14,613 nt of DNA from a virus. Lineage: Duplodnaviria; Heunggongvirae; Uroviricota; Caudoviricetes. How positions within the stretch are numbered: position 1 is the first letter of the stretch; each line of letters opens with the position of its first letter. Under the pieces are notes generated by a model. The model saw nothing but the letters and a program-made list of their open reading frames with translations, was not told the origin of the DNA and did not search any database. Shown one piece after another: positions 5,107 to 13,245 of this stretch. A program made the position numbers and the translations under genes. The DNA lies in the IMG/VR virus record IMGVR_UViG_2778261465_000005, positions 1 through 14,613 of that record; one strand, 5' to 3'.

Positions 5107-5337
5107 TTAAGCTGCGTTCTTTTCGGTGTGTGGAAACAACTTCGGAAGGTCCGGGCGAATCTGGTATGCCTTCACAACTCCACCAGTAGCCGTAACAATG
5201 CTGCCGACATGTTCAGGGGATACCTTTGCTTTGTTGTGAAGCCACTTATAGACGGCCTGCTGTGAAACTTCGCAGGCATCGCCCAGTTTCTTTTGTGAAC
5301 CAACGATATTGATCGCTGTTTTGATTGCTGGGTTCAT
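5107..5337 (-). CDS. Cro-like small HTH regulator (YdaS-like family)
   Basis: 76-aa ORF divergent from the repressor, strong GGAGG Shine-Dalgarno; helix-turn-helix-like segment QKKLGDACEVSQQAVYKWL. Confidence 0.6.
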   Translation of the reverse strand: MNPAIKTAINIVGSQKKLGDACEVSQQAVYKWLHNKAKVSPEHVGSIVTATGGVVKAYQIRPDLPKLFPHTEKNAA

Positions 5338-5441
5338 AACAACCTCCGTGGTTAATCTGAATCAAGATTAAAACTATGGTTGTTTTTAGTCAACAACCAT
5401 TTTCGTTTGATGTAATAAAACCCTGGTTGTACATTTGGTCT
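5338..5441. promoter_or_regulatory. OR-like divergent control region between the cro-like and cI-like genes, with a 25-bp palindrome ATGGTTGTT-N7-AACAACCAT (5376..5400)
   Basis: Perfect 9-bp inverted arms seen directly; AACAAC/GGTTGT motifs recur here and downstream of the cassette terminator; no Shine-Dalgarno ahead of the repressor ATG. Confidence 0.5.
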
Positions 5442-6131
5442 ATGAAAACAACACTCTCAGAAAGACTTAAAGAAGCCAGATTAGCGCGAGGCCTTACACA
5501 AAAGGCGCTTGGGGATTTGGTCGGGGTTAGCCAAGCTGCTATTCAGAAAATCGAAACAGGGAAAGCTAACCAAACAACTAAAATCGTGGAGATCGCGAAC
5601 GCTTTGGGTGTGCGCGCAGAATGGTTATCTTCTGGCGTTGGAAATATGTCAGACAGTACAGTGCAACCAATACAATCAACTGTCAGCCATTCCAAATACT
5701 TTAAGATTGACGTTCTTGATATAGAAGTGAGTGCCGGGCCGGGAGTCATCAACCGTGAGTTTGTAGAAGTTCTACGCTCGGTTGAGTACTCGTTTGACGA
5801 TGCTCGTCACATGTTCGATGGTAGGAAGGCAGAAAATATCCGCATCATTAACGTGCGTGGTGACAGCATGTCAGGAACGATCGAACCAGGTGATCTGCTG
5901 TTCGTTGATATCACGGTTAAATCTTTCGACGGTGATGGTATCTATGCGTTTCTGTATGACGACACAGCCCATGTAAAGCGCCTGCAAATGATGAAGGATA
6001 AGCTGCTGGTTATCTCTGATAACAAAAGCTACTCACCGTGGGACCCGATCGAGAAAGATGAGATGAACCGGGTATTTATCTTCGGGAAAGTTATTGGGAG
6101 CATGCCGCAGACGTATAGGAAGCATGGATAG
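5442..6131 (+). CDS. Prophage repressor, cI-like (N-terminal XRE-type HTH plus C-terminal S24 LexA-like autopeptidase); not lambda immunity
   Basis: MKTTLSERLKEARLARGLTQKALGDLVGVSQAAIQKIE is an HTH; the C-terminus has GDSM (catalytic Ser) and a downstream VKRL (Lys) typical of S24 peptidases. The track ORF begins at 5376, but the HTH starts at the ATG at 5442. Confidence 0.85.
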   Translation: MKTTLSERLKEARLARGLTQKALGDLVGVSQAAIQKIETGKANQTTKIVEIANALGVRAEWLSSGVGNMSDSTVQPIQSTVSHSKYFKIDVLDIEVSAGPGVINREFVEVLRSVEYSFDDARHMFDGRKAENIRIINVRGDSMSGTIEPGDLLFVDITVKSFDGDGIYAFLYDDTAHVKRLQMMKDKLLVISDNKSYSPWDPIEKDEMNRVFIFGKVIGSMPQTYRKHG

Positions 6132-6199: not shown

Positions 6200-7273
6200 A
6201 TGGAGAACTTAATGGATACTTTAAAATATGAGAAATTCTCTGATTTTGATCACAATGACCCATTTTTTGACTCTTTAAAAAAAGATTATAAAGAGTTTCC
6301 TCTTTGGTTAGAAAAAAAAGCCAGAGAAGGAGAATCAGCTTATGTGCTCTATGATGACAAGCATAAAATCGAAGGTTTTATGTATCTAAAAGAAAATGAT
6401 GATGCAAATGACATTAATCCAGCGCTCCCACCAGGACGTCATCTAAAGATAGGAACATTCAAATTTGAATCTAAAGGCACCCTTCGCGGACAACGATTTC
6501 TAAAAAAAGCGTTTGACCATGCATTTTCATCAAAATCTGATGATATTTATGTTACTGTTTTCGACAAACACGTCCATCTAATAAAACTTTTCCAAACGTA
6601 CGGATTTTACATTCATGGTGAAAAAGAAACACATAACGGGAAAGAGTTTGTATATGCGAGGTCTTTGCATGAGCCTTATGGTGATATTTTATTAGATTAC
6701 CCTCGAATAATGACATCAAGGGCCAACAAATATTTACTGGCGATTTATCCCGAATATCACACTAGACTATTCCCTGATTCAAAACTTGTAAATGAATCAC
6801 CAGATATTGTCAAAGATATATCCCATGCTAACAGCATTCATAAAATTTACATATGTGGAATGCGTTCTGTGATGGGAATGAAAAGAGGAGATATCATTGT
6901 CATCTATAGAACCGGAGACAAAAAAGGGCCAGCTCGCTATCGTTCTGTAGCCAGTACATTATGTGTAGTTGAGAGCGTAAAAAATATTTCTGAATTTTTA
7001 AGCGAAGATAGTTTTGTAGACTATTGTATTCGTTTTAGCGTATTTTCTGAAGATGAACTCAGAAAAATCTATAAAGAACGTCGATACCCTTTCATTATAA
7101 GATTCACATACAATCTGTCTTTGCCAAAGAGACCCAATCGTGCTATTTTAATAGATCATGTGGGGCTAAATGGTTCGCGTGCATTCCGATGGAGTCACTT
7201 TAAACTCACAAATGAGCAGTTCTTAAAGATCATCGAGTTAGGCAAGATAAATGAAAGTTTTATTATCCATTAA
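6200..7273 (+). CDS. Hypothetical 357-aa protein, AT-rich cargo gene; tentatively an N-terminal GNAT-like fold with an unassigned C-terminal domain (possibly PUA-like)
   Basis: Directly downstream of the repressor on the same strand with no terminator between; markedly lower GC than its flanks. An alternative start at 6212 has a better Shine-Dalgarno (GGAGA). Domain guesses are from motif impression only. Confidence 0.6.
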   Translation: MENLMDTLKYEKFSDFDHNDPFFDSLKKDYKEFPLWLEKKAREGESAYVLYDDKHKIEGFMYLKENDDANDINPALPPGRHLKIGTFKFESKGTLRGQRFLKKAFDHAFSSKSDDIYVTVFDKHVHLIKLFQTYGFYIHGEKETHNGKEFVYARSLHEPYGDILLDYPRIMTSRANKYLLAIYPEYHTRLFPDSKLVNESPDIVKDISHANSIHKIYICGMRSVMGMKRGDIIVIYRTGDKKGPARYRSVASTLCVVESVKNISEFLSEDSFVDYCIRFSVFSEDELRKIYKERRYPFIIRFTYNLSLPKRPNRAILIDHVGLNGSRAFRWSHFKLTNEQFLKIIELGKINESFIIH

Positions 7274-7628
7274 GCCTGAGTTTGCAGAAAAAATATTGAA
7301 CGGAACAAAGCGGTTCGAGTTTCGTAAAGGTATATTCAAAAATCCGCAAATTAGCACCGTTGTTATTTATGCCACGATGCCATTAGGTAAAGTTGTTGGT
7401 CAATTCCGTATTGAATCAATACTAAGTGACGAACCGGAATCTCTTTGGAAAAAGACGGAAAAACACGCAGGTATTTCTAAGCAATTTTATGACTCATATT
7501 ATTCAGGTAGAGAAAAGGCCTACGCAATAAAAATTGGTGAAGTGGAAAGATATAAAGAACCAATTCCTATCTCTGCTCTAGGGAGTAATATTAAGCCACC
7601 ACAATCATATCTTTACCTACCTGCGTAA
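7251..7628 (+). CDS. ASCH-like (PUA-superfamily) small protein, 125 aa; second gene of the cargo cassette
   Basis: N-terminus MKVLLSIKPEFAEKILNGTKRFEFRK resembles the ASCH-domain signature; start overlaps the upstream gene by 23 nt; AT-rich. Confidence 0.55.
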   Translation: MKVLLSIKPEFAEKILNGTKRFEFRKGIFKNPQISTVVIYATMPLGKVVGQFRIESILSDEPESLWKKTEKHAGISKQFYDSYYSGREKAYAIKIGEVERYKEPIPISALGSNIKPPQSYLYLPA

Positions 7629-7632
7629 GAAT

Positions 7633-7660
7633 CCCGGCCACCGTGCCGGGTTTTCTTTTG
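7633..7660 (+). terminator. Intrinsic terminator closing the cI + cargo operon
   Basis: GC stem CCCGGC-(caccgt)-GCCGGG followed by TTTTCTTTT, starting 5 nt after the stop at 7626-7628. Confidence 0.65.
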
Positions 7661-7771
7661 TCCCCTCATCACACAAACCGTTCAAATAACCACCACGACA
7701 TCCCTTCAGTTATCGCTATGCGATGCAAGTCACAAAATAAATCCATCCTAAATACAACCAGTTATATCTAA

Positions 7772-7850
7772 AACAACCAGTAAAACAACTTTTGTTGTTG
7801 ACGATAAAACAACTATAGTTTTAAATAAATTCATCGCAACAACACAACGA
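7772..7850. promoter_or_regulatory. OL/pL-like candidate: repeated AACAAC/GTTGTT operator-like motifs including the palindrome AACAAC-tttt-GTTGTT (7784..7799) and a sigma70-like promoter (TTGACG 7798-7803, 18-nt spacer, TAAATA 7822-7827)
   Basis: Motifs read directly from the sequence; position upstream of the leftward early operon and sharing the repeat motif with OR supports an operator role. Confidence 0.35.
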
Positions 7851-8103
7851 TACGGCAACCACCTGATTCACCGTTGCGATGACCGCTTAGATCCGCAGCT
7901 TGAATTTCAGCAGGCTCCGGGGAGTGCGAGGGGTGAAGCGGACGCGTGAACGTCGGTGTGACCAGCTGAAATCAACTCAACACTTCATACCTCAGTCGCT
8001 TCAACGAGGCGGCTTAGTTATGACAACCGGCGGCCATCCACCGCCTGAATACGCGCAGAAGTCTATATATGTTCAGCAGCCCAGCTTACGGGCAGGAGTT
8101 TTT

Positions 8104-8310
8104 ATGGTTCATCAACATTACGGAACGCAGACCGTTAATCGCGGTGCGGTCATGCCAGGAATGCTGGTCAAACACAAAGATGGTACCTGGACTGCATCAG
8201 CTAATTTACGCGGACGGCTATATCTGCATCGCGGCATCGAGCGCACTTATACCCGTGATTTGCTCGTGGAAGTTTTTCTCGACGGACGCGGCAACGGCCT
8301 GAATCACTAA
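8104..8310 (+). CDS. Small protein (68 aa) at the kil position upstream of gam; possibly a Kil-type host division inhibitor
   Basis: ATG at 8104 with AGGAG about 7 nt upstream; the track ORF from 7900 uses a TTG start and is probably over-extended. Functional call is positional only. Confidence 0.4.
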
Positions 8311-13169: not shown

Positions 13170-13215
13170 TGGTGCCGATAATAGGAGTCGAACCTACGAC
13201 CTTCGCATTACGAAT
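13170..13215. other. Inferred attR (prophage-host junction) overlapping the 3' part of thrW
   Basis: Integrase is adjacent to the tRNA 3' end; phages integrating in tRNA genes regenerate the 3' end from attP. Exact core limits cannot be set without the attL copy. Confidence 0.4.
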
Positions 13216-13245
13216 GCGCTGCTCTACCAACTGAGCTATATCGGC
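13170..13245 (-). tRNA. thrW: tRNA-Thr (anticodon CGU)
   Basis: Reverse complement reads GCCGATATAGCTCAGTTGGTAGAGCAGCGCATTCGTAATGCGAAGGTCGTAGGTTCGACTCCTATTATCGGCACCA: cloverleaf with anticodon CGT and encoded CCA. Confidence 0.9.

Follow-up and report, generated by a model that had tools for sequence, protein, structure and literature searches.

In phage 434, operators span 14 base pairs (bp), with contacts to the outer 5+5, conservation of the outer 4+4 and no contact at the central 4, as in the reference sequence ACAATNNNNATTGT (PMC1636474). In the CP-933P switch, with its YdaS-type cro and YdaT-type cII, the repressor PaaR2 and YdaS leave footprints that overlap the two promoters, and regulation extends to a pL-like promoter; PaaR2, described as having no sequence similarity to λ CI, is associated with 18-bp repeats with the half-site GTTTAGTAA, and the paaR2 mRNA was shown to be leaderless by 5' RACE and N-terminal sequencing (PMC8630535). 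A leaderless repressor mRNA is also established for λ cI (PMC10491246). The present analysis concerns the interval between a cro-like gene and a cI-like repressor gene (positions 5338-5441) in a tailed-phage sequence of 14,613 nucleotides (nt), the IMG/VR record IMGVR_UViG_2778261465_000005, hereafter called the window. Motif statistics, conservation, co-variation with the recognition helix and geometry lead us to regard this interval, with good confidence, as the probable right-hand control region of a λ-type lysis/lysogeny switch equipped with phage-434-type operators; from the same data we infer binding, occupancy order, activation and transcription start.

In the proposed mechanism, a dimer of a LexA-like repressor, combining a helix-turn-helix (HTH) and an S24 domain, would most likely bind 14-bp ACAAC-N4-GTTGT sites, with three sites lying between cro and cI (the right operators, OR) and at least two more (the left operators, OL) at the leftward early promoter, 2.4 kb off and past the cargo genes. 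Simultaneous occupation of O1 and O2 would shut the lytic promoters, the rightward pR and the leftward pL. OR2, centred at -42.5 from the cI ATG, is placed such that bound repressor could contact RNA polymerase at the maintenance promoter pRM, as in λ, and OR3, at -18.5 and over the -10 element, would be filled by excess repressor or by Cro, the recognition helix of which resembles that of the repressor, leading to pRM shut-off. From this geometry, activation of pRM from OR2, cooperative binding at OR1 and OR2 and looping between OL and OR may be expected. The predicted elements of this region are the following, with operators given without strand and their centres relative to the cI ATG:

5107..5337, minus strand: gene of the cro-like lytic repressor (76 amino acids, YdaS family, recognition helix VSQQAVYKW)
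5339..5352: candidate fourth operator, ACAACCTCCGTGGT, one mismatch, on the DNA covering the Shine-Dalgarno (SD) sequence and start of cro
5365..5393, minus strand: putative pR, with -35 TTGACT (5393..5388), 17-bp spacer and -10 TAATCT (5370..5365)
5370..5383: predicted operator OR1, AAAACTATGGTTGT, at most one mismatch, filling the pR spacer, centre at -65.5
5376..5400: palindrome made of the inner half-sites of OR1 and OR2 plus the spacer holding the pR -35 (minus-strand TTGACT)
5393..5406: predicted operator OR2, ACAACCATTTTCGT, with a weak outer half-site, abutting the pR -35 and the pRM -35, centre at -42.5
5407..5435, plus strand: putative pRM, with -35 TTGATG (5407-5412), 17-bp spacer and -10 TACATT (5430-5435), 6 nt from the ATG
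5417..5430: predicted operator OR3, AAAACCCTGGTTGT, at most one mismatch, located in the spacer of pRM and extending into the -10, centre at -18.5
5442..6131, plus strand: gene of the cI-like repressor (229 amino acids, 434-like HTH domain and S24 self-cleavage domain)

The earlier note on this DNA had drawn attention to AACAAC/GTTGTT repeats shared by the two control regions, and these are indeed present in both, including AACAAC-tttt-GTTGTT (7784-7799), which overlaps TTGACG (7798-7803). AACAAC is found at 5338, 5392, 5447, 7772, 7784, 7808 and 7838, and GTTGTT at 5379 and 7794, meaning that two stretches of about 100 bp hold nine of the 19 copies in the window. The operator unit that emerges from these repeats is most likely a 14-mer of the phage 434 style, ACAAC-N4-GTTGT (ACAACNNNNGTTGT). 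Allowing one mismatch at most, it occurs five times against 0.49 expected, a number reached in none of 200 shuffles, and all five matches fall inside the control regions (5339-5430 or 7785-7822). The three OR sites, with centres 23 and 24 bp apart, are located between the divergent pR and pRM, OR2 lying near -42 and OR3 over the pRM core; OR1 is a direct repeat of OR3 and occupies the same location in relatives.

To obtain these relatives, four repressor N-terminal domains were aligned and the alignment was used to scan genomes, each species being represented once, which returned 41 loci. The 26 used for comparison carry the recognition helix SQAAIQK or a near variant and represent about 15 enterobacterial genera, among them Kosakonia, Enterobacter, Klebsiella, Pectobacterium, Brenneria, Serratia, Providencia, Morganella, Xenorhabdus and Arsenophonus; counts per OR position refer to all 26, and those per OL position to 17 lineages. 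A mostly perfect ACAAC-N4-GTTGT is centred at -18.5 from the A of the repressor ATG (-19.5 or -20.5 in a few), and relatives that have retained a divergent cro show OR2 at about -42.5 and OR1 at about -65.5. The half-site positions of OR3 are kept in 21-26 of the 26 relatives and those of OL1 and OL2 in 16-17 of the 17 lineages, while all four central positions of OR3 vary. Across the 26 OR and 17 OL sets the sites therefore appear as 14-bp elements of twofold symmetry, with conserved outer ACAA...TTGT and an unconserved central 4 bp. In loci of 5-10 kb with the phage layout, sites with at most one mismatch correspond almost exclusively to the OR set and the OL pair (a few loci have one stray match), with the OL pair lying 0.8-3.3 kb downstream of cI regardless of the cargo. 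Four relatives with other helices (AQPTIWR, AQPSIFK, SQPSIWK and SQPTVNR) have no ACAAC-N4-GTTGT site and present different 14-mers at the matching positions.

The strongest evidence comes from the way in which operators and DNA-binding domains vary together. Among 50,697 phage records, the same seven contain both the OR block and the full OL block, six being phages of E. coli and one a Klebsiella phage; these are also the phages with this repressor N-terminal domain. Phage 4A7 is 97.5% identical to the window from mid-cI (C-terminal domain) to the pL transcript, cargo included; it has another N-terminal domain, cro and OR, and exactly 95 bp are replaced at OL (window 7739-7833), identity being continuous to 7738 and resuming at 7834, the predicted pL start. 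This phage has a 14-mer of its own, ATAGC-N4-CGTAT, in both its OR and OL regions and with equal spacing. In addition, the helix residues of cI and Cro are shared within an immunity type (SQAAIQK/SQQAVYK here, AQPTIWR/AQPTVWR in 4A7) and differ between types. Such co-variation of helix and operator is the best support, short of a binding assay, for the 14-mers as the probable operators of this repressor. The proposal that the OR-like and OL-like regions carry operators of one and the same repressor is thus borne out by the co-occurrence of the blocks and by their joint exchange with the DNA-binding domain in 4A7. The description of the motif as immunity-specific stands in part: the motif is swapped together with that domain, but its outer ACAA...TTGT is the same as in the operators of phage 434.

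The relationship to phage 434 extends to the protein. The repressor matches the Pfam families HTH_3 (5.4e-13) and Peptidase_S24 (1.2e-18), the domain composition of lambdoid CI/LexA-type repressors, and its translation contains VSAGPG, RGDSMSG and HVKRL, corresponding to an Ala-Gly cleavage site and to the Ser/Lys motifs GDSM and VKRL, from which cleavage is predicted. The nearest solved structure to the N-terminal domain is that of 434 repressor 1-69, aligned without gaps over residues 2-65 (E 5.6e-10), and this 434-like character agrees with the earlier suggestion of a specificity unlike that of λ. Besides the homologous N-terminal domain, in which the Gln opening the recognition helix is kept, the two systems share 14-bp operators that are symmetric in their outer 5+5 bases and unconstrained in the central 4, the identical outer ACAA...TTGT and three OR sites. 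They differ in the recognition helix (SQAAIQK here and TQQSIEQ in 434, four of seven positions), in the fifth operator base, which is here a conserved C, in the Cro protein, which is of the YdaS type and not a homologue of 434 Cro, and in the distance between operators, here 23-24 bp.

The left-hand control region repeats the same design. Its elements, all predicted, are:

7739..7833, no strand: immunity-specific OL/pL block, swapped as a unit in the heteroimmune phage 4A7
7754..7768, no strand: candidate OL3 or accessory element, ACAACCAGTTATATC, with one good half-site and three mismatches to the 14-mer
7785..7798, no strand: operator OL2, ACAACTTTTGTTGT, zero mismatches, abutting the pL -35
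7798..7827, plus strand: putative pL, with -35 TTGACG (7798-7803) and -10 TAAATA (7822-7827, 18-bp spacer) or TTAAAT (17-bp spacer)
7809..7822, no strand: operator OL1, ACAACTATAGTTTT, one mismatch, within the pL spacer, counterpart of OR1

The block occurs only in phages with this repressor N-terminal domain. Over 31 bp, its pL shares about 90% identity with the pR region read on the opposite strand, and in both promoters O1 occupies the spacer and O2 adjoins the -35. OL1 and OL2 are 24 bp apart in 16 of the 17 lineages (23 bp in the remaining one), ACAAC and GTTTT of OL1 are invariant in all 17, and the pL -35 reads TTGAC in 16 and TTGAT in one. The pL start is predicted near 7833-7835. Many lineages have, 31-45 bp upstream of OL2 and beside a AAAAATAAAT tract, a conserved ACAACCAAATAAAAC(C)-like element; that of the window (7754-7768) could serve as a weak OL3, as a direct-repeat site or as an upstream promoter/bending element. 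Two further copies of the hexamer, both inside the OL interval of the earlier note, are probably not operators: the one at 7772 is unconserved even in the 98%-identical phage PhiR47_2, and the one at 7838 lies in transcribed sequence common to the heteroimmune phage 4A7.

On the repressor side, the arrangement TTGnnn-N17-TAnnTT is kept in all 26 relatives, and the gap between it and the ATG consists of 6-7 unconserved nt in all but one of them (8 nt). The 20 nt preceding the ATG at 5442 pair with the anti-SD sequence at -2.6 kcal/mol, compared with -10.2 kcal/mol for cro, which has a GGAGG as its SD. The locus thus joins a -10 hexamer 6-7 nt upstream of the start codon to the lack of an SD, and the previously noted analogy with λ cI transcribed from pRM holds; the λ pRM -10 also lies 6 nt before the cI ATG. 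Because the -10 of pRM ends 6 nt before the ATG, the maintenance transcript should start at A 5442 and be translated without a leader, that is, the cI message very probably starts at its own ATG, with a predicted +1 at A 5442.

A different start, either of the protein or of its message, has to be weighed against this. The repressor could begin at ATG 5376 (251 amino acids), or its mRNA could have a short leader from another promoter, and in neither case would it be leaderless; we consider this unlikely. The reading frame is open from 5376 in the window, and phages PhiR34_1, Turner and PhiR5_1 have the long form annotated (756 nt, 251 amino acids), from an ATG that lies inside OR1 and has no SD. 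Of the six close E. coli phages, however, three (PhiR47_2, IdasGreatGrand and PhiR26_1) have an in-frame TGA two codons ahead of ATG 5442, an in-frame TAA is found upstream of the repressor ATG in the Klebsiella phage, and the N-terminus MKTT at ATG 5442 is present in all relatives, such that the start annotated in PhiR34_1, Turner and PhiR5_1 is very probably wrong. In favour of a leader, the pRM hexamers are weak (8/12 consensus positions by hand count) and a cII-dependent establishment transcript, if present, would have a leader anyway, but the -10-to-ATG distance stays at 6-7 nt while the bases in between vary freely. Leaderless translation from A 5442 remains the preferred interpretation.

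Two other readings concern the palindrome itself. The inverted repeat reported in the earlier note, ATGGTTGTT at 5376-5384 and AACAACCAT at 5392-5400, is there as described, with arms 100% complementary and 7 nt between them. It had been taken as the operator, ATGGTTGTT-N7-AACAACCAT, a single dimer-bound unit of 25 bp with the looser AACAAC/GTTGTT copies acting as OL operators, and such a possibility, which we hold to be highly unlikely, would account for the perfect 9-bp arms and for the recurrence of GTTGT...ACAAC at OL (7794-7813), with 6-9 of the 9 arm positions complementary in relatives. Nonetheless, the arrangement GTTGT-N9-ACAAC gives one good match in the window, and its matches at up to two mismatches (6 against 7.3 expected) are not above chance. 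Its core, obtained by trimming one base from each arm of the palindrome, has a spacing of 9 in OR, 10 in OL and 8-10 among relatives, although a dimer site should hold its spacing. As the inner half-sites of OR1 and OR2 are 8, 9 or 10 apart while the N4 is invariant, this gap lies between operators and not within one, and the palindrome is better seen as spanning two neighbouring 14-bp sites. A 25-bp unit would also leave the invariant -18.5 site and the perfect OL2 unexplained, and its half-sites would face the opposite way to those of the homologous 434 repressor, about 14 bp from centre to centre instead of 9-10. That the palindrome is an RNA hairpin working as a bidirectional intrinsic terminator, with no protein bound to it, is barely credible. 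A terminator scan does list 5376-5400 on both strands, with a 9-bp stem and T-rich tails, but the stem has just three G-C pairs (-8.4 kcal/mol), ranges from -2.2 to -7.5 kcal/mol in relatives without compensatory changes, and is located upstream of both divergent promoters, where it holds the pR -35; moreover, its conservation tracks the DNA half-sites and not base pairing. A pair of adjacent 434-type operators, OR1 and OR2, is therefore the interpretation retained here.

Several observations weigh against the λ-type switch as drawn above. OR2 carries two mismatches to the 14-mer, and at this level of stringency (up to two mismatches) the window as a whole contains 10 matches against 7.0 expected, which is not above chance and leaves the case resting on clustering and conservation; the conservation counts, in turn, are not independent events, since many of the relatives are related prophages. 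A consensus promoter scan with a threshold of 9/12 calls none of pR, pL and pRM, each having 8 of 12 consensus positions when counted by hand, so that promoter placement rests on conserved position. The -10 frame of pR, TAnnnT, is retained as TATTCT, TATTAT and TATAAT in Klebsiella, Providencia and Erwinia phages, respectively. Also unfavourable is that OL has no clean third site, no 14-mer with up to two mismatches being found upstream of OL2, and that OR3, in contrast to λ, matches the consensus best in most relatives, with the sequence giving no occupancy order. Finally, the searchable literature offers no binding or transcript data for this immunity type.

Some of these features could mean that, despite its identical geometry, the switch is wired differently from that of λ, with a fourth site, OR3 as the best site and possible cross-immunity with 434, an idea that we find doubtful. 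Concerning the fourth site (5339-5352), the majority of relatives, in different genera, have a match with at most one mismatch there, at 27-32 bp from OR1; the SD of cro imposes the CTCC centre of the site, which renders its operator status uncertain, and it could either work as a genuine downstream operator or just reflect SD constraints. As to the order of affinities, the central 4 bp are A/T-rich in OR1 and OL1 (TATA or TATG) and also in OL2. The OR3 centre is G/C-richer, starting with C in 20 of 26 relatives and having G or A as its last base, yet OR3 has the best half-sites. Given this difference between centres, affinities may be ranked, by analogy with 434, through indirect readout of the central 4 bp. 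Cross-immunity with 434-type phages is conceivable because a helix differing from that of 434 at four positions still appears to read the ACAA half-site; if true, it would concern the approximately 28% of E. coli genomes that carry this repressor. A separate candidate Cro site, TTAATCT-N6-AGATTAA (5352-5371), was rejected, its symmetry being broken in close E. coli phages.

In common with λ, the locus has the succession cro, OR, cI, prophage-expressed cargo, terminator and OL/pL, a distance of 24 bp between OL1 and OL2, no SD ahead of the repressor gene, and an S24 cleavage domain in the repressor; its operator centres (-18.5, -42.5 and -65.5) match those annotated for λ OR3, OR2 and OR1 (-19, -42 and -66). 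The differences reside in the operators, which measure 14 bp instead of 17 bp and are unrelated in sequence, in the N-terminal domain, which belongs to a different family, and in the absence of a clear OL3 and of an N gene downstream of pL, besides the rank of OR3 as best consensus match. With the PaaR2/YdaS/YdaT module of CP-933P it has in common a repressor gene separated, by about 100 bp of intergenic DNA, from a divergent YdaS-type Cro and YdaT-type cII-like gene; its repressor differs from that of CP-933P in being an S24-domain, 434-like protein with different operators.

A further likeness is found outside phages. RdgA and RdgB of Pectobacterium mediate the induction of pectin lyase following DNA damage. 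In its N-terminal domain RdgA shares about 70% identity and the same recognition helix with the repressor, and the rdgA loci, among them that of Pectobacterium carotovorum, show a perfect ACAAC-N4-GTTGT at -18.5 with the same -10-to-ATG geometry, as well as a pL-like TTGACA with ACAACTATAGTTTT before the adjacent Mor-family gene (rdgB position). RdgA is reported by Liu et al. (1994, 1996) to repress rdgB and to regulate itself, with which these sites at the rdgA locus agree. Unlike the phage switch, RdgA/RdgB form a chromosomal pair without cro, OR1 and OR2, and the locus looks like a domesticated remnant of this switch. A conserved site, ACAACCAAAATTGT, is also present within the rdgA coding region, at +132. 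Searches of the openly accessible literature returned nothing relevant on the RdgA operator, on GevT/GevA or on the exact operator strings.

In summary form, then, the switch is a standard lambdoid one, with λ geometry and 434-type operators, very common in E. coli, apparently uncharacterised experimentally and conceptually nothing beyond λ and 434; among the searchable phage records and papers, none describes the operators of this immunity type, the relatives of which are spread across Enterobacterales. Its value is practical: the operator model (ACAAC-N4-GTTGT, five mapped sites) corrects the annotation of the start codon, for which several phage records use the 251-amino-acid reading frame, predicts which prophages are homoimmune, and explains the position of the cargo slot relative to the control elements.

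The surroundings of the switch are those of a lambdoid prophage with the λ layout in reversed reading direction, as deduced from the open reading frame map and from the annotation of near-identical phages. The remaining features are:

5107-5337 and beyond, minus strand: cro, followed by a YdaT-type cII-like gene and then by O, P and ren
6200-7273 and 7251-7628, plus strand: cargo genes, downstream of the cI-like repressor gene (5442-6131)
7633..7650, plus strand: intrinsic terminator of the cI-cargo operon, with six G-C pairs followed by a T run
past the terminator, plus strand: kil, gam, bet, exo, xis and int
13173-13245: tRNA adjoining int

Accordingly, a cro-type gene diverges from the repressor gene, replication genes lie beyond cro, and recombination and integration genes lie beyond pL. 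The Cro protein matches YdaS_toxin in Pfam (6.6e-17) and also P22_Cro, and is annotated as Cro in PhiR47_2. An Rfam scan of the window returned the tRNA at 13173-13245 alone, with no match in OR, OL or the pL leader.

Between pL and kil (7828-8105) there is neither an N-type antiterminator gene nor cIII. Two candidates for the missing N function were discarded: an HK022-type put RNA, since blastn showed no similarity to HK022 19000-30000 except for the cI C-terminal domain, and an N-like peptide upstream of kil (in frame, from GTG 7933, with the arginine-rich start MKRTRERR...), which has no match in PHROG or Pfam. The pL leader measures about 190-270 nt, depending on the kil start chosen; a perfect 10-bp stem (7831-7840 with 7873-7882) is found at its predicted 5' end, and its overall fold is not significant (z = -1.06).

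The segment 5300-5700 of the window is 100% identical to E. coli PSS-16, and the repressor plus OR segment is present, at 95% identity or above, in 1,521 of 5,426 complete E. coli genomes (about 28%), carriers of this immunity type having almost always a single copy per genome. In NCBI records, the repressor/cro pair is labelled only as 'S24 family peptidase' or 'helix-turn-helix transcriptional regulator' plus 'transcriptional regulator'.

With respect to the cargo, the gene at 6200-7273 encodes a 357-amino-acid protein assigned to PHROG 6345 (unknown function), with a weakly acetyltransferase-like N-terminus and no match in Pfam, and the overlapping gene at 7251-7628 encodes an ASCH-domain protein. 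PhiR47_2 annotates the pair as GevT toxin and GevA antitoxin. Among the phages with the OR and OL blocks, the cargo slot shows five arrangements, being occupied by GevTA, HipA/HipD, a lipoprotein or RexAB, or containing no cargo at all.

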